This document shows positions 1,883-17,350 of a stretch of 64,000 nucleotides of DNA, piece by piece. The notes under the pieces were generated by a model that saw only the letters and a program-made list of their open reading frames with translations, made no database searches and was not told the origin of the DNA. The position numbers were made by a program, and so were the translations under genes. Location of the stretch: positions 3,100,001 through 3,164,000 of the forward strand of contig NC_073396.1 in the NCBI RefSeq assembly GCF_028641065.1. The letters run 5' to 3'. Every line of letters begins with the position of its first letter. Positions within the stretch are counted from its first letter, which is position 1. This DNA is from Leucoraja erinacea. Lineage: Eukaryota.

Positions 1883-2957
1883 AACCTACAACCTTGCACG
1901 TCTTTGGGATGTGGGAGGAAACCAGGGCAGCAAGAGGTCACCATGCGGTCACAGGGAAAGCATGCAAACTCCACACAGACAGCACCCGAGGTCAGGATCG
2001 AACCTGGGTCTCTGGCGCTGCGAGGCAGCAACTCTACCCGCTGTGCTACTGTGCTCTCTGATCAACGATCAATATTTACATTAACTCTTCTGCCTAAATG
2101 AAAATTCATTCTTTGTGTGTCCAATTTATATGCTAGCATCAGATATATTTCACCAGTAACGAAAAAGCCGATGAAGCCATAAATGATGAAGGGCATAAAA
2201 AAAAGTCAGAATGTTTCTGTCAGCAGAAATTATAATTAAACAGATAGGACATCAAAAGACACAAGGTGTACCATGACTGCAAGGCAGAGAGCAAAGTCAG
2301 CAGCTTCATCTCAAACATCCACAACATCATCATATAATCATTGAGATTAGAAATGCTGTTAGGAACCTGCATGATACGTGCATTTATATAGACATTCATG
2401 ACAGGAGTGGCAGCTGGACACACAAACCAGGATGATTGGTGTCCCAAAACACTCCAATCTGGTTTCTCAAGACAGGTGGATGTTTTTAATGGCGATTTTT
2501 TTTTCAGTTACTGTAAATTTACCTGGTGCCACATCATGAGCAGTGTGTATGATAAACAACATTAGGAGACACGGATTTTGAATTGCCCTTTAACCGAACA
2601 CTGACATTTACGAGAAGCGTAAGAACAAGGAACTGCAGGTAACTCAGCAGGTCAGGCAGCATTTCTAGAGAAGGTGACGCTTCGGTATAGGTGAGCTTTG
2701 GGTAGGACCCTTCTCCAGTCTGAAGAAGGTGCAGACACAAAATGGTGTATCTGTTCTGGCATTAGAGGGGAAGGTTGCCCTGTAGAACTCATTGCAGTAT
2801 CTTAAAATAAAATATATTGAGAGGACTAATATGCAGCTAGTATGCCATCCTATATCAGATTAATTTCTCACCCAATCTGGGTTCACATTTAAGTCAAGGC
2901 TATTAACTTCTTTGCTTCAAAAATAAGGTAACAGCAGGTAATGCAGCATCTCTTTTT

Positions 2958-4415
2958 TTAGTTTAGTTTACAGATACAGGCCCTTCGGCCCACCGGGTCC
3001 GCGCCAACCAGCAATCTGAGCGCATTAACACTATCCTGCCCCCACTAGGGACAATCTTTACATTTACCAAACCAATTAACCTATAAACCTGTACGACTTT
3101 AGAGTGTGGGAGGAAACCGAAGATCTCGGAGAAAGTCCACGCAGGTCACGAGCCCAAGGCCGTCTTAACACGTGGGCACGCTGGGCAGTTGCCCGGGGCC
3201 CACCACGAGCCTAGGGGACCCATGCTGATCTATGTATGTTGTGACATGCTGTCAATAAATAAATACTGAATTGCAAGAACGGATTCATCAACTGAATGAG
3301 TTTGCCATCCATGTGCCTTGTGCTGGACACCGCCTAAACTTAACATAGAAACATAGAAAATAGGCGTAGGAGAAGGCCATTCGGCCATTCGAGCCAGCAC
3401 CGCCATTCATTGTGATCATGGCTGATCGTCCCCAACTTGGTGGGTGTAAAAGTGGCAGAGTGTTGTCTACAGACTCTAAAATCCTTTGACTTGGCTCAGT
3501 GTCCGTATTCGTTTTTCTCTGATTCTACACATCGATGGAATGTTCCGGCATCATCTTTAGGAAATAAATGTTGTGGCCAAGCGTCTCAGTCTGACACGAG
3601 ATGGCCGTCACATTTTGATGCCGTTCGTGCTCTGTACGGGGGTTTGGAGAAAATTAAACATGCACTGGATTCTGTATCAGCTGACACTGAACAGGAAGTG
3701 AACACAAGGGGAGAGGCAGGAGGACTGAGCGAAAAAACGGAGAACCTGGAACGATCTTCCTCACAATTCTTTGGAATGACATCCTTGAAAGAGTGAACTA
3801 AACAAGCAAGGTACAGCAGTCAAGAGGATGTGAACATACTTGTTGCCATGAATCTTCTTGAGTCTCTGAAAACCTACCTTCAGGAAATTAGAGACAAATT
3901 TAGTGAATACGAATTGAAAGCCGGGAGTAGGTGTCCAGATTCAGATTATAGCGATGTGAAGAAACGGGAACGAAAGCTAAGTGTGCGTCTTACTAGATAT
4001 GACGGATCAGAAGAGGAGGATCAAAATAATTTCGGGCAACTTGAAATCTAATCTCATTAGTTTCCTAACGTTTAAATTGCACTCAGTGTTCACGTGTATG
4101 ATGGTGACTAACTGTGCAGGACAACGTTCATTTTCAAGACTGAAACTTATAGAAAATCAGCTTGGCAGCACAATGGGGCAGCAGCGTTTGAACTGGCTTT
4201 AATTTTATCGACCATTTACATTTTTATTCCAGCGAGTGGTTGTGTAGGTAGGGGCCCCAGTGCACTGCTTTGCCCAGGGGCCTATTATGCTGATAAGACG
4301 GCCCTGCACGAGGCGAACGTGCAAACTCCGTACAGACAGCACCCGTAGTCAGGATCGAACCCGGGTCTCTGGCGCTGCATTTGCTGTCAGGCGGCAACTC
4401 TACCGCTGTGCCACC
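2958..4415 (-). mobile_element. HE1-type SINE interrupted by a hAT transposon
   Basis: SINE 3' part at 2958-3154 and 5' part at 4307-4415 are collinear across the hAT insertion. Confidence 0.75.
3155..4306 (+). mobile_element. Internally deleted, degenerate hAT DNA transposon (Tip100-like termini)
   Basis: TIRs CAAGGCCGTCTTA and TAAGACGGCCCTG. 8-bp TSD cacgagcc (3147-3154) / cacgaggc (4307-4314). Frameshifted transposase pieces: FFSDSTHRW, SDTRW and the hATC-like motif VTNCAGQRSFSRLKLIENQLGSTMGQQRLNWL. Contains a CR1 3' stub at about 3342-3436. Confidence 0.85.
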
Positions 4416-10670: not shown

Positions 10671-11922
10671 AACATAGAAACATAGAAATTAGGTGTAGGA
10701 GTAGGCCATTCGGCCCTTCGAGCCTGCACCGCCATTCAATATGATCATGGCTGATCATCCAACTCAGTATCCCGTAACTGCCTTCTCTCCATACCCCCTG
10801 ATCCCCTTAGCCACAAGGGCCACATCTAACTCCCTCTTAAATATAGCCAATGAACTGGCCTCAACTACCCTCTGTGGCAGAGAGTTCCAGAGATTCACCA
10901 CTCTCTGCGTGGAAAAAAAAGTTCTTCTCATCTCGGTTTTAAAGGATTTCCCCTTTATCCTTAAGCTGTGACCCCTTGTCCTGGACTTCCCTAACATCGG
11001 GAACAATCTTCCTGCATCTAGCCTGTCCAACCCCTTAAGAATTTTGTAAGTTTCTATAAGATCCCCTCTCAATCTTCTAAATTCTAGAGAGTATAAACCA
11101 AGTCTATCCAGTCTTTCTTCATAAGACAGTCCTGACATCCCAGGAATCAGTCTGGTGAACCGTCTCTGCACTCCCTCTATGGCAATAATGTCCTTCCTCA
11201 GATTTGGAGACCAAAACTGTACGCAATACTCCAGGTGTGGTCTCACCAAGACCCTGTACAACTGCAGTAGAACCTCTCTGCTCCTATACTCAAATCCTTT
11301 TGCAATGAAAGCTAACATACCATTCGCTTTCTTTACTGCCTGCTGCACCTGCATGCCTACCTTCAATGACTGGTGTACCATGACACCCAGGTCTCGCTGC
11401 ATCTCCCCCTTTCCCAATCGGCCACCATTTAGATAATAGTCTGCTTTCCTGTTTTTGCCACCAAAATGAATAACCTCACATTTATCCACATTATACTGCA
11501 TCTGCCAAACATTTGCCCACTCACCCAGCCTATCCAAGTCACCCTGCAGTCTCCTAGCATCCTCCTCACAGCTAACACTGCCCCCCAGCTTAGTGTCATC
11601 CGCAAACTTGGAAATATTGCCTTCAATTCCCTCATCCAGATCATTAATATATATTGTAAATAGCTGGGGTCCCAGTACTGAGCCTTGGGGTACCCCACTA
11701 GTCACTGCCTGCCATTGTGAAAAGGACCCGTTTACTCCTACTCTTTGCTTCCTGTTTGCCAGCCAGTTCTCTATCCACATCAATACTGAACCCCCAATGC
11801 CTTGTGCTTTAAGTTTGTATACTAATTTCTTATGTGGAACCTTGTCGAAAGCCTTCTGGAAGTCCAGATACACCACATCCACTGGTTCTCCCCTATCCAC
11901 GCTACTAGTTACATCCTCGAAA
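10671..11922 (-). mobile_element. 5'-truncated CR1 LINE with uninterrupted reverse-transcriptase C-terminal frame
   Basis: ORF 10764-11951 has VDVVYLDFQKAFDKV, GVPQGSVLGP, KFADDTKL, ERDLGV-like, VRPHLEYCVQFWSP and RVVNLWNSLP. The 3' UTR ends in (TTCTATGT)n. It is inserted into a Penelope-derived repeat. Confidence 0.95.
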
Positions 11923-12822
11923 ACATCCTGGAATAGCGGGTCAGGCAGCATCTCTGGAGAAAATGGATGGGTGATGTTTCAGGTTGAGGCCGGTCTTCTG
12001 AAGAGGGGTCTCTTTCCTCTAGAGATGCTGCCTGACCCGCTGAGTTATTCCAGGACTTTGTGTATCTTTGTCATAAACAAGCATCTACAGTTCTTTGTTT
12101 CTATGTACATATTGATCCTGTCCCTGTGTACACTACACTCTGCCATAGACTTTGCTGCAAGTTTCAAAACTCGGTGAGTGAATGCTTACAATGATCACTT
12201 CCGAGTCAATAAAGTTTTAAATTTCAGATTAATCTGAACACGAAACGGGAATGAGACAGATTACACAAACTCCCCAGGTATACAGAAGCCCTGCACAGAA
12301 CATGTTCTCCAGAGATGTTGCCTGGCCCGCTCCATTACTCCGGCACTTTGCCTCTTTTCTTTTCACAGAATCCCCGACGTTACAGAACACTTTAAAGACC
12401 CTTTGTGAAGTACGAAATAAATGCTCGCTCTTTAGCTTCCAGAGCTCCGTGAAATAAACAGCACGTGTTTCTATTAATGGTAAATGCAAGCCAGATAGCT
12501 GATCAGCAGCGATTCTGTTTAGTTTCTTGTCACTTGCCTGTGATCTTGTCCTTTTCTTTCTCTTCTGCCGGGTCGTATCAGGCTTCTCAGGTGCTGGCTG
12601 CGGGTCGTCAGTGGACAGTTTCACCTTGCGGGTTGCAAGTTTACTTTTCTTCTCTTTGGTCATCTTGTGGAATAACGAATGGATACGACTGGTGTTTGTT
12701 TGAAAGTTTCTTTTAAGTAAACCAGCCCGAGAGAGAGAGAGATATATAGTCAGTTAATTAGTTAGTTATTGACTGTACACAGAAGTTAAAGGGCTGCATC
12801 TGATGTTTGGACTACTTGTTAC

Positions 12823-12856
12823 CAAAGATCCTATAGCTCGCTAGACAGGATCTTTG
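12823..12856. mobile_element. 34-bp TIR-only remnant (probable excision footprint) with perfect 8-bp TSD
   Basis: cttgttac (12815-12822) | caaagatcctatagc-tcgctagacaggatctttg | cttgttac (12857-12864). Its ends match the TIRs of the element at 13986-14447. Confidence 0.85.
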
Positions 12857-13668
12857 CTTGTTACTGCAGCAAGCTGCCTCTCCACGTGGGACACATGAGT
12901 CCACCAGCCCAGCCTCCTTGCCCCGACCTGATCCGCAGGCAAACTTTCATTGGGTCGCCTCCCTGCCTGTCCGTCCCCGGACCTTTGGCTACAAGTTTAC
13001 GGCACCACGTTGGGTTGGAGTCTGGAGTCAGGAGGCAAGGAGTGTGGAATTATGCGAGGGCCAATATATAAATATTGGGATGTGCAGGAAGAGACTGCAG
13101 ATGCTGGTTGAAAGCAAAAATGCTGGAGAATGTGAGATTAGGGAAGGGATCTTCACTGAGTGTGGGATTTGTTTAAGAAGGAACTGCAGATGTTGGAAAA
13201 TCTAAAGTGCTGGAGAAACTCAGCGGGTGCAGCAGCATCTATGGAGCGAAGGAAATAGGCAACGTTTCAGAAAGTTCAGTCTGAAGAAGGGTTTCGGGAC
13301 GAAACGTCGCCTATTTCCTTCGCTCCATAGATGCTGCTGCACCCGCTGAGTTTCTCCAGCACTTTTGTCCACCTGAGTGCGGGATTGTGGAAGGTTTGGA
13401 AGGGAATTTCACAGCGTGTGTGTGTGATTATGGAAGGGAATAGACTCGATGGGCCGAATGGCCTAATACTTACTCCTAGAATTTGTGAATGTGGGATTAT
13501 GGAAGGCGGGTTTCACTGAGTGAAGGTTATGACAAACACTAAGGGAGTATCTTTGGTTTTATGGAAGATATTTGCAATGGAGGTGAAGGGAGAGAGTTGA
13601 TGTACCTTGGCTGCCAGCAACACATCCGGTCCGGTAGGGCGCCGGTCACATGCCATGGGGGGGGACTC

Positions 13669-13985
13669 GGCGCTGCCCCCGTCACGTGGTGATGCTGGCG
13701 GTCACGGCGCTGCCCCCGTCACGTGGTGCGGGCGGCGTTCACCAAAGATCTTATAGCGTTCATGGTACCCCTGTCACGTGGTGGTGCTGGAAGTCACGGC
13801 GCTACCCCCGTCACGTGGTGGTGCTGGAAGTCACGGCGCTGCCCCCGTCACGTGGTGCTACTGGCGGTCACGGCCAAAGATCCTATAGCAGAGCTCCGCG
13901 GCGTTCACGGCGCTACCCCCGTCACGTGGTGGTGCTGGTAGTCACGGCGCTGCCCCCGTCACGTGGTGGTGCTGCTGGCAGTCAC
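13669..13985. repeat. 37-bp GC-rich minisatellite with GTCACGTGG in each unit
   Basis: GTCACGTGG at 13681, 13718, 13773, 13810, 13847, 13921 and 13958 (spacings 37, 55, 37, 37, 74, 37). The array resumes at 14448 after the MITE. Confidence 0.9.
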
Positions 13986-14447
13986 CAAAGATCTTATAGC
14001 GAAGCAAGATAGGCTGCTCCTGCTGAATGCAATGGACTGACGTGTAGCACGCTATGGAGGGGGGTCATGGGCATTTTCCACGCCCATTTTAGCAACCTGA
14101 TCCTCCCGACCCGACTCGCAATGTAATCTTATAGCAGAGTTATAGGATCTTAGGTGTAATTTTGTTAGTTCTCACCTCTGTTAATTCTTGTCACGAATAA
14201 AATTTGACTCGGGTAATAGTGTTCTTTCTAATGTTTTTAACATGTTTTCTTTTTAAATGGTTCATAGGCTGTGTTTGAGCAGATTTTGTGCAAACCGGAA
14301 CATAGCCGGCCCGACTGGACTCGCAGGGTAATCAACGTTGCGGGGAAGTTTTCGTGTGTGACATAGGGTTAGATTCTTAATTATGTTAGTTCATAATTCT
14401 CTTAATTCTTGGTAAAGAAAAAAGTTTTCTTCGCTCTAAGATCTTTG
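13986..14447. mobile_element. 462-bp non-autonomous DNA transposon (MITE), P or hAT superfamily
   Basis: 18-bp TIRs caaagatcttatagcgaa / ttcgctctaagatctttg (1 mismatch). Perfect 8-bp TSD gcagtcac (13978-13985, 14448-14455). AT-rich interior inside a CpG island. Confidence 0.85.
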
Positions 14448-14480
14448 GCAGTCACGGCGCTGCCCCCATCACGTGGTGGC

Positions 14481-14675
14481 GGCGGCGTTGGTTCACGGCA
14501 CCCCACGTCACGTGGCGCCTTACTTCCGGCGGCGTTGGTTCACGGCACCCCACGTCACGTGGCGCCTTACTTCCGGCGGCGTTGGTTCACGGCACCCCAC
14601 GTCACGTGGCGCCTTACTTCCGGCGGCGTTGGTTCACGGCACCCCACGTCACGTGGCGCCTTACTTCCGGCGGCG
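14481..14675. repeat. Four perfect 47-bp tandem repeats with E-box and ETS motifs (SMCR8 proximal promoter)
   Basis: Unit ggcggcgttggttcacggcaccccacgtcacgtggcgccttacttcc at 14481, 14528, 14575 and 14622. Each has GTCACGTGG, and ACTTCCGG spans each junction. Confidence 0.95.
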
Positions 14676-14711
14676 GGGGTCAGTCAGCTGGAGGGAGGGA
14701 GACAAGACAAG

Positions 14712-14816
14712 ATGGCGGCTGGCGAGGAGCAGCCAGTGTCGCCGAGCTGTTGCTGCCCGCCTTCCCCGGGCGGCGGCGACCACGACCACGACCACGGTGA
14801 GGACGAGCCGCGATGA
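14712..14816 (+). promoter_or_regulatory. Upstream ORF (34 aa) whose stop overlaps the SMCR8 start; YY1-type motif AAGATGGCGGC at its start
   Basis: aagATGg strong Kozak context at 14712. The frame ends CGA-TGA (14814-14816), overlapping the ATG at 14813-14815. The TSS is unknown. Confidence 0.55.
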
Positions 14817-17202
14817 TCACCGCCCCCGACGTAGTGGCCCTGGCCCGCCAGGAGGACGGGGAAGGGGAGAGGGGGGAGGAGGAAGAGCGGCCGGCGCCTC
14901 CCTTCCACTTCCAGCCCCACAACCCCTGGGCCGGGGCCGCCGCCGCCACCGCCACTTTGCTGAAGGATTTCATTCTCATTTCCGAGTTTTCCGAGCAGGT
15001 AGGCCCTCAGCCGTTGCTAACCATCCCGGACCATGCCCGCGGCGACTTTGACCTCAACTATTTCTCTCTCAGGATCATGTCTGTGGATTACCAGGCCTCG
15101 TTCGTGGGCCACCCTCCCGGCACCAGCTACCCCAAGCTCAACTTCGTGGAGGACTCCAAGGTGGTGCTCGGCGACTCCAAGGAAGGAGCCTTCGCCTACG
15201 TCCACCACCTGACCCTCTACGACCTGGAAGCCAGGGGCTTCGTCCGCCCTTTCTGCGTCGCCTACATCTCCACGGATGAGAACAAGATCATGCAGCAGTT
15301 CCAGGAGCTCTCGGATGACTTCTCCAGAGCCTCCGAGTGCCTGAAGACCGGCAACAGAAAAGCGTTTGCCAACGAGCTGGAAAAGAAACTTCAGGACCTG
15401 GAGTATACCCGGAATGTGCTGCACAATGAAACAGAAATCCAGAAAAAGTCAAACGATAAAGGATATTACTCTTCGGTTGCGATAGAGAAGGCGAATGAAC
15501 TCGCCAATGTGGAGAAATGTATAATCGAGCATCAAGATCTCCTGATGCAGATCAGAAATTATTCATACAAAAAAACGAGGGATGCCAGCTATTTTACACA
15601 CGAGCCAGATAATGGTACGGAACATTCTGAGTCTGGGTTGGAGGAAATGCAAAATAGGGGCGAGTCGTCTGAAAAAAATAGTTTATCCGATGGAAGATCT
15701 TACATACCTAAATTTACAAAAACTAAATCTGCAAAATGCTTTGAAAAGAAACTGAAAACCCTGGAAGAACTTTGTGACAGCTACTTTTTTAATCAAACCT
15801 TAGAACAACTTAGGCAGGTGGAGAAATTCTTCAGGGGGGATGTATGCTATCTCCTTACCAGTCAAATTGAAAAGGTGCTCCTGCAACAACAACGGACAAC
15901 TTATTTTCTCTTTGAAGACTCGCTACTCTTCACTGATGAAGAACAAGCTGAAAAAGAACAGCACTGTGAAAAACCCCTACCTTGTTTTAATCTTATCAAT
16001 GCTAAAGTTTTGGACCACCCTTGTCTATCAACTGAAGCGGCAAGCTGTGATTCGTACAAGTCTTGCGTGGAGTCTGTATCCATTAAACTGGATCCTCAAA
16101 TTAGCGTAGACAGTTATTGTGGGTCTATGTCTGATTCCGTTCCATTCAAAAGTCTCTTTGGAACTTCGGACTATCTTGAATTGGAAGGGAAAGAGAAAGG
16201 AAGTATTAGTAGTGGTGAAAGCATTGAGGTCCTGCGTACAGAAAAATCCTCCTCGACCCCAATATCATCCAAATCTGACAACCAGACAGACACGCAGCGC
16301 CAGCATCTGCACGTTGTGCAGCGGAAGTTTGTTGGTACTAGGAGGGCGAACAGCGAGGACAGCATTGAGGTACTAAGTACCACTGAATCACTGATACCCG
16401 AAGACCTGAAAGCCGCCTATCCAAATGCAATCCATGAAGAAGAAGCACCTTTAGAAAATGAAACAATTGGGCTGAGCACAGATCTTGTGGAGCCTGATGC
16501 AAATCTAAACCATACTAATGGGTTTAGCAACACAAATTTTGAAACTGGAACCATTAATTTCTCTGCGTTATCTGAGCCCGTTGACCCTTCTTGTTGTATT
16601 GGGAAAGAGAGCCCACATTTTAATAAGTCTGTACCTACATTTGTAACCGAAGAGTACAGGGATGGGGTTGTCAATGTTCCACCACAGCGCAGCAAAACCA
16701 TCAGTCACCTATTCCACAGTGATTACCCACTGCAAGAAGGGGGAGGTGGATCGGATAATGCTGCAGATCAAGTATTCTCTCCCTGTGAAAAGGAATACAG
16801 TGATCTACCCGGTGCTGAAGAAATGGCTCGGCTTCCAGTGGATGAGTATTTGGACAACATGAGCTACATAAGTGCATCTTTATATTCTGATCGGACTCCA
16901 TCTCCAGCCCTCCCAACCAGTCCGTCAAAGAGGCTCTCTGAAAGACGCAAGAAGCATTCGGGGAAGAATTCTCTGTGGTTTATACGGCAATATTCTTTTG
17001 CACAGCAGGCAATATTTTCACTGCTGTCTGGGCGGACCCTTGTGGTGGTTGGTGAGCACGAAGGGAAAGTCAAGAAGCTTGTCAATGCCTTGTCAATATT
17101 TGTCCCCAGTCATGGCAGAGGTGCAGATTCTGTGAAGCAATGGGTAACGCTTCCTTTGCACGTGGATGACTTGCAGACTTGGAAACTCATTGGACTTCAG
17201 AG
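14813..17202 (+). CDS. SMCR8: SMCR8 (C9orf72-complex subunit, DENN/longin family), coding exon 1
   Basis: MITAPDVVA..DFILISEFSEQVGPQPLLTIP..FDLNYFSLRIMSVDYQASFVGHPPG..DLEARGFVRPF matches recalled vertebrate SMCR8. Donor AG|gtgggt after LIGLQR (phase 2). Confidence 0.97.
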
Positions 17203-17350
17203 GTGGGTGGTAAATATAAAGTATAACATGGTTATATCTCAGGAGCCGTTTACTTTGTAATGAATACAGGCCTGGCGATGTCAGCGCAATAAGACGGGCT
17301 TATTAATAGATCTAGCCGTGTGGTTTACAGCTATTTCATAATTGGAAAAT

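Follow-up and report, generated by a model that had tools for sequence, protein, structure and literature searches.

P elements and THAP9 are already known from vertebrates (excerpts of PMC7776569 and PMC10983969), and excision junctions that retain TIR sequence are already known from flies (excerpts of PMC2895639). In the fly junction tables excerpted from PMC2895639, the arms are 17 nt or shorter, short joins are most often made at the last two bases (AT/TA), and templated insertions are found. In the fly strand-transfer complex, as described in the relevant part of PMC7776569, the transferred strand loops out and doubles back onto the 5' part of the non-transferred strand, and this pairing is required for transposition. 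Judged by titles and the opening lines of abstracts, none of the papers that our literature searches brought up deals with P scars across a vertebrate genome or with a stagger that differs from 17 nt. The family described here may already carry a name in repeat databases.

We examined a window of 64,000 nt from Leucoraja erinacea (the whole stretch of DNA analysed, to which positions refer), in which traces of one TIR lie upstream of SMCR8, and searched the 2.19-Gb genome for the same TIR. We consider it highly probable that the traces come from a P-superfamily cut-and-paste transposon and that four of them, (a) to (d), are likely repair products of its germline excision from the CpG-rich SMCR8 upstream region.

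RESULTS

Traces of one TIR upstream of SMCR8

The first-pass annotation of this DNA had claimed five TIR traces within 1.7 kb, and all five are present where it placed them, with small corrections to their coordinates (Table 1). A 15-mer of the TIR has four exact matches in the window, all inside 12823-14000, and ten matches when up to three mismatches are allowed, compared to a mean of 3.41 in shuffled sequence; none of 100 shuffles reached ten. The full length of the TIR is ~35 bp and not 15, and a perfect 8-bp TSD flanks 13 of the 15 two-ended non-autonomous copies examined. The gene downstream is identified as SMCR8 by the match of its first coding frame to PDB 6LT0_B (E 4.9e-230).

Table 1. 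Features of the SMCR8 upstream region, with positions in the window
Feature	Position	Strand	Remarks
(b) two-ended excision scar, mutated 33-bp class	12823..12856		TSD cttgttac at 12815-12822 and 12857-12864, perfect
37-bp GC-rich minisatellite	13645..13974		one CACGTG per unit; hosts insertions (c), (d) and (a)
(c) one-armed scar	13743..13758	+	TSD gcgttcac at 13735-13742, gcgttcat at 13756-13763; 1 mismatch
(d) damaged two-ended scar	13875..13899	+	TSD gtcacggc at 13867-13874, ttcacggc at 13904-13911; 1 mismatch
(a) 462-bp deletion derivative	13986..14447	-	TSD gcagtcac at 13978-13985 and 14448-14455, perfect
(e) old 33-bp self-insertion scar, 8-bp loss here	14129..14153		TSD atgtaatc / gtgtaatt
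47-bp perfect tandem repeat, 4.2 copies	14480..14675		kin of the 37-bp unit; CpG-island core
SMCR8 first coding exon	14813..17260	+	ATG 14813; 819-aa open frame from 14801; Folliculin PF11704

Trace (a) had been read as a complete 462-bp MITE. The span and the perfect TSD hold, but (a) is not a complete MITE: it is made of 442 bp of the 3' end of the element (relative to the transposase), one extra base and only 19 nt of the other TIR. Over the 442-bp part, identity to the 3' end of L106, a copy that carries the transposase, is 96.9%; the right junction occurs once in the genome at ≤2 mismatches, and the remaining copies align to (a) only over nt 1 to 380-444. A MITE is expected as many near-identical full-length copies with both functional ends, and the unique junction of (a) does not conform to this. 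Thus, (a) is a one-off deletion derivative, without MITE-type amplification. Another element (L002, 999 bp) parallels it, with an arm of 18 nt. The structure of (a) fits aborted gap repair at its own site, and (a) is probably immobile.

Position, perfect TSDs and left arm are as described for (b) when it was called a 34-bp remnant, but the right arm is 20 nt and not 17-19 bp. The 15-nt left arm and the 20-nt right arm overlap by 2 nt (GC), and the scar has since lost 1 nt, gained 2 nt and undergone one substitution. A clean 33-bp form of (b) is found in contigs of two other organisms, where it may be paralogous. Although (b) had been placed inside a CpG-island promoter, it sits beyond the island, ~2 kb upstream of the SMCR8 ATG (GC 0.48-0.49, CpG o/e 0.41-0.57).

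The two smaller traces in the minisatellite also differ in part from their first description. For (c), a left-TIR stub joined through GCG microhomology, the stub, the TSDs and the GCG all stand, but its length is 16 nt of TIR, including a last GCG common to the right TSD, instead of 13 bp; the C>T change in the TSD falls at a CpG. We infer that (c) is an excision product; alternatively, it could be a copy made locally inside the minisatellite, as its 16 nt are the same as the left end of (a). For (d), described as a left-TIR stub of ~20 bp, the 20-nt arm is there (13875-13894), but it is followed by 5 nt of the opposite arm (TCCGC, up to 13899) and so is no plain stub. The first 25 nt match the 38-bp class of scars, and the other 13 nt are swapped for 4 nt of minisatellite-like sequence. 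Thus, (d) is a damaged 38-bp scar, the right part of which was probably lost through exchange within the minisatellite.

Trace (e) is indeed a degraded two-ended remnant within (a), with a TSD one base from that first proposed, but it is not a local event. It is present in 24 of the 29 other best-matching copies, part of which are duplicates of one insertion. Judging from these copies, (e) is fixed in the 3' subterminal region of the family, was made elsewhere and was inherited by (a), which leaves (a) to (d) rather than five independent events at this locus. Copies that lack (e) were considered as clean empty sites and rejected, because their sequences diverge immediately past the left TSD. 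Reads from four public runs aligned to 12700-14900 were dominated by SINE and transposon copies, and no contig built from them spans (a) to (d). Variable TIR positions distinguish (a), (b) and (d) from one another, so at least three donors are likely.

The CpG-island core at 14500-14999 has a GC content of 0.69 and a CpG o/e of 0.96, and the surroundings of (c), (d), (a) and (e) are likewise CpG-rich (o/e 0.84-1.13). Insertions (c), (d) and (a) each break into the 37-bp minisatellite, which resumes on the right side of (a).

Several other features of the region were observed. The related 37- and 47-bp minisatellites, directly upstream of SMCR8, hold 12 CACGTG in total. At 14712-14816, an upstream ATG opens a frame of 34 codons, the stop of which overlaps the SMCR8 ATG; in two other organisms, the contigs have gaps here. 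A public RNA run covers the SMCR8 start hardly at all. Further upstream are a fragment of a LINE-type reverse transcriptase on the minus strand (10764-11978, 404 aa open, PF00078) and SINE-like high-copy repeats (13080-13510), including a 65-bp inverted pair at 13204-13365.

Short TIR-retaining scars occur throughout the genome

The genome search for the 15-mer suggested by the first-pass annotation yielded 4,477 + 4,549 exact occurrences, compared to 1 + 1 for controls. Intact TIR ends number ~3,000. In addition, there are 3,424 two-ended remnants of 20-50 bp, compared to 2 in the control, which bears out the earlier claim of TIR-retaining excision scars with 8-bp TSDs; the lengths of these scars are sharply bounded. 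Samples for detailed analysis were drawn from one contig (C1). Among the first 50 scars, 31 have a perfect 8-bp TSD and 10 more have one mismatch (41/50). Similarly, in an earlier set of 101 remnants, 80 have an 8-bp TSD with at most one mismatch, while the 7-bp and 9-bp windows all have at least three mismatches. The symmetrised TSD consensus is G-T-n4-A-C.

The lengths of the scars form several classes. In the first 50 there are 18 distinct lengths, with peaks at 22 bp (5 scars), 24 bp (4), 26-28 bp (15), 33 bp (6, the class of (b)) and 38 bp (6); a single scar is 34 bp, two exceed 40 bp, and the remaining 48 are ≤40 bp. The peak for the sister subfamily B (see below) is at 34 bp. The single peak near 30-36 bp (2x17) that had been predicted is thus replaced by this set of peaks. 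Remnants of 41-70 bp number only 229; in many of the 50 listed, pieces of an arm are repeated at short length, in the manner of the templated insertions of the fly tables.

Some of the scars counted were inherited within other repeats: 93 sampled scars correspond to 77 distinct insertion points. Extrapolated from one contig, the 20-50-bp pattern would represent, very roughly, 2,500-3,000 independent events. A third TIR variant (386 matches) was considered as an extra data point and set aside, as it proved to be a single inherited scar in all 30 loci examined. Single scars made by self-insertion or by insertion into another repeat (L325-L354; L199, L202-L204, L206), have been amplified with their host up to hundreds-fold, and are usable as subfamily markers.

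Scar arms stop at TIR nt 20 or nt 18

The window traces belong to subfamily A; in its sister, subfamily B, the TIR is 2 nt shorter, the missing nucleotides lying before GAGC. Among short remnants of subfamily A, 1,290 arm ends agree with the TIR over nt 1-20 and only 23 also over nt 21-22, compared to 2,962 intact ends that continue with AAGAT. The 23 longer arms are mostly nested, templated or one-sided gap-repair products, and they include a few genuine one-sided extensions (32-34 nt). The limit in subfamily B is GAGC at nt 18, which 518 arm ends reach and 3 pass; the 24 B loci examined represent 18 distinct sites, 14 of which have a TSD with at most one mismatch. Thus, in both subfamilies the arms stop immediately before the internal AAGAT. 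Arms of 19-20 nt make up 27 of the 100 in the first 50 scars, blunt 20|20 joins were found in 3 of 39 scored scars, and blunt 18|18 joins in 3 places among 100 matches listed. The expectation of arms of 15-17 nt with a limit of 17 nt, as in Drosophila, does not hold here.

In the excerpted fly tables, no arm is longer than the 17-nt tail; on the same reasoning, excision here probably leaves tails of 20 nt in subfamily A and 18 nt in subfamily B. The cliff coincides with a self-complementary GC, to which repair may trim a tail that is 1-2 nt longer.

We asked what might place the inner nick with a scan for fold-back pairing, devised after the cliff had been seen. In the five TIRs scanned in the genome, the sole 5-of-5 pairing is in register -3 and begins right after the cliff, at nt 21 in A and at nt 19 in B. 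For the fly TIR, taken from the primer printed in PMC2136230, register -3 is again the best one at the known nick (score 3.5), but three other positions score 4.0 and outscore the nick, so fold-back alone fails to predict the fly nick. We judge the chances evenly divided that the inner nick is placed by sequence rather than by a 17-nt ruler.

A different account, which we regard as tentative although quite possible, accepts the scars as true P excision products but has the nick set by distance, either because the A and B transposases measure their own 20 and 18 nt or because a longer tail is trimmed by 1-2 nt to the GC pair. In its favour, the A and B transposases are only ~68-75% identical, and GC-overlap joins dominate, with T after nt 20 in 35 of 49 arms. 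The blunt joins, however, finish exactly at C, and A comes after nt 20 in just 4 of the 49 arms, where the partner arm can supply it. Scars of 36 bp that combine an arm of 20 nt with one of 18 nt also exist, which argues against a measured distance, though several are inherited copies of one event.

A transposase-free origin of the scars is very improbable, whether the TIR stem was crossed at short repeats by replication slippage or recombination, as in the near-precise excision of bacterial transposons, or gap repair was aborted at random. In favour of such an origin, most joins have a 2-4 nt overlap, and there are the few one-sided extensions of 32-34 nt. Yet the ~35-bp stem offers further palindromes, GC and GGCC, at nt 26-31 (GGCC being present in 16 of the 73 intact ends), and none of the 23 long-arm places is joined there. 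The one-sided products, moreover, still keep a short arm of ≤20 nt (19 in (a), 18 in L002). The cliffs at nt 20 and nt 18 largely rule out both processes.

We find it just as hard to credit that the short units are a mobile micro-MITE inserting as elements of 22-40 bp. Two TIR ends with their own 8-bp TSDs at many sites would be expected of such an element, but 18 lengths among 50 scars, varied junctions and templated insertions would not. These units lack TIR nt 21-35 and any subterminal sequence, and identical repeats of one unit have common flanks and so are carried inside larger repeats.

The family encodes a THAP and P transposase

A search of the genome for the P-transposase RNase H domain gave 40 matches, several of them a few kb from the best matches to (a). 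These frames carry Pfam domains PF21787, PF21788, PF21789 and PF12017 together with THAP (PF05485, E 5e-9), so that the P-type RNase H, GTP-binding insertion and HTH domains are all found, and most long copies have a THAP exon upstream of the transposase. The sole PDB match of the transposase frames is the fly P transposase (6P5A; E 3e-29 and 1.3e-42). In a frame of 773 residues (L115), D230, D303 and E531 are identical, as are seven of the eight GTP-contact residues, with K400 replaced by R (residue list from the part of PMC7776569 that gives it). Named homologues are few among the best 120 matches; they are mollusc P transposases at 35-40%.

Long copies that encode THAP and P transposase between 8-bp TSDs, which the first-pass annotation had suggested seeking, are present. 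Two elements are complete, with both TIRs, THAP, transposase and a perfect 8-bp TSD (on contigs C1 and C956), and both belong to subfamily B. An A-type element (L318) has two TIRs, a TSD with one mismatch, a THAP exon and the C-terminal 30 codons of the transposase. We found no A-type element that is complete, with the whole transposase between both ends, and no 5' TIR within 10-20 kb of the transposase copies of this type. One of eight stretches examined matched the transposase; L317, a 5.9-kb pair of A-type TIRs, did not. The two-ended non-autonomous copies are 0.9-1.7 kb.

Assignment to hAT, whose elements also make 8-bp TSDs with T at position 2 and A at position 7 so that TSD length and base bias cannot separate the two superfamilies, has next to no probability and was rejected, because every coding copy tied to these TIRs encodes THAP and P transposase and carries P domains only (Pfam). 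The earlier choice of P over hAT is thereby upheld.

Six subfamily-B copies (L115-L120, on contigs C956, C1296, C154, C1087, C1188 and C1305) have open transposase frames of 772-773 residues. The three that were compared are ~99% identical or more and share internal scars but differ in their flanks, which suggests that they moved not long ago. In its 5' subterminal region, the family has CAAGATGGCGG in 3-4 tandem copies (L018 element nt 1390-1480; L110:5660-5725), which is like TIR nt 20-28; these repeats are candidate THAP binding sites. The motif resembles the YY1 site, and it is also seen at 14708-14718 of the window, ahead of SMCR8.

Scars favour CpG-island-like DNA and cluster locally

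We compared the flanks of scars with 60 control sites 50 kb away from scars. The median number of CpG per 100 bp within 250 bp is 4.0 for scar flanks and 1.5 for controls, and a CpG island lies within 0.4 kb of 35 of 93 scars but none of the 60 controls. Merging shared insertion points leaves 23 of 77 distinct sites with an island (still versus 0/60), so that the enrichment foreseen for CpG islands is found, in terms of island composition only. An unbiased set gave 17 of 48 (two of its 50 were dropped as second scars in one locus), and at non-repeat sites the figures are 13 of 43 scars compared to 0 of 28 controls. The signal weakens by ~0.8 kb. More than half of the scars (50/93) lie in repeats; CpG-rich is therefore not always promoter. 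A second TIR is found within 1.5 kb of 25 of 65 sampled scars, compared to 1 of 60 controls.

Thus, the family favours CpG-island-like DNA and clusters locally. Since clustering is usual, the SMCR8 locus is no special hot spot, as had been supposed, although four events in 1.6 kb are at the high end, the sampled scars having at most three other TIR matches. The SMCR8 cluster is ordinary for its transposon family, one among many, and the main interest lies in the genome-wide read-out.

DISCUSSION

We propose a model in which insertion, with a stagger of 8 bp, would take place at G-T-n4-A-C-like targets where the DNA is open and CpG-rich; the transposase would frequently place the element close to a previous copy or within one. 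On excision, the transferred strand would be cut at the tip and the other strand nicked inside the TIR, between GAGC and AAGAT, so that an identical 3' tail of 20 nt (or 18 nt) would be kept on each flank. End joining that pairs the tails at their terminal GC would give scars of 38 bp in subfamily A and 34 bp in subfamily B. Pairing of GC with an inner GC would give 33 and 28 bp, pairing of AG/CT 24-27 bp and pairing at TATA 22 bp, while blunt ligation of the tails would give 40 bp. The addition of short templated tail repeats, like those of polymerase-theta repair in flies, would account for lengths of 41-60 bp. Less often, one tail would copy part of a sister element before joining the unextended tail, giving one-sided derivatives such as (a), with its 442+1+19 structure. 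The inner nick is probably set by sequence, in that the first 5 nt beyond it would re-pair with nt -3 to -7 of the transferred strand.

The scars stop 2 nt apart at the same motif in two sister subfamilies, which points to a simple rule that is testable with oligonucleotides. In its general form, the rule would put the P inner nick at the 5' border of an internal copy of the TIR tip, which must re-pair with transferred-strand nt -3 to -7, and would make the '17-nt' stagger one setting of a variable loop, with 18 and 20 as the settings here; we hold this to be no better or worse than an even prospect. If it is true, the fossil scars in a genome are enough to locate directly where any P family is cut. 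The scars also show that P elements once moved abundantly in the germline of a vertebrate, favouring CpG-rich DNA and leaving repair products like those of the fly; repeat annotation can probably miss traces this short.

These elements can be compared with other P elements as described in excerpts of the articles cited. Like zebrafish Pdre (PMC10983969), they are vertebrate P-superfamily elements with 8-bp TSDs and internally deleted copies, but the TIRs of Pdre2 are 13 bp and its related sequences number at least 50, compared to TIRs of ~35 bp and ~3,000 intact ends here, and zebrafish THAP9 excision produces larger flanking deletions (PMC10983969). The P-MITEs of Anopheles gambiae (PMC1562414) and BuT5 (PMC3698922) are non-autonomous P derivatives with 8-bp TSDs and a gap-repair origin, and our two-ended copies of 0.9-1.7 kb are of the same kind. 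In contrast to both, (a) is unique, has one truncated end and is no amplified MITE. The word 'footprint' is absent from the main text of PMC1562414 and PMC3698922.

There is also a close likeness to the P element of Drosophila melanogaster, which shares the THAP, HTH and RNase H domains with a GTP-binding insertion, the D/D/E residues, the 8-bp TSD and a TIR of 31-35 bp (PMC7776569, in part). Its excision likewise leaves TIR tails on the flanks that are joined by terminal microhomology, bluntly or with templated inserts, and yields one-sided deletion derivatives (PMC2895639, in part); it too is described as preferring promoter-like DNA and nearby sites. The two differ in TIR sequence, which is unrelated, and in arm length, 17 nt in the fly but 20 or 18 nt here. 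The Drosophila junctions were recovered from crosses, whereas here thousands of scars are fixed in a vertebrate genome.
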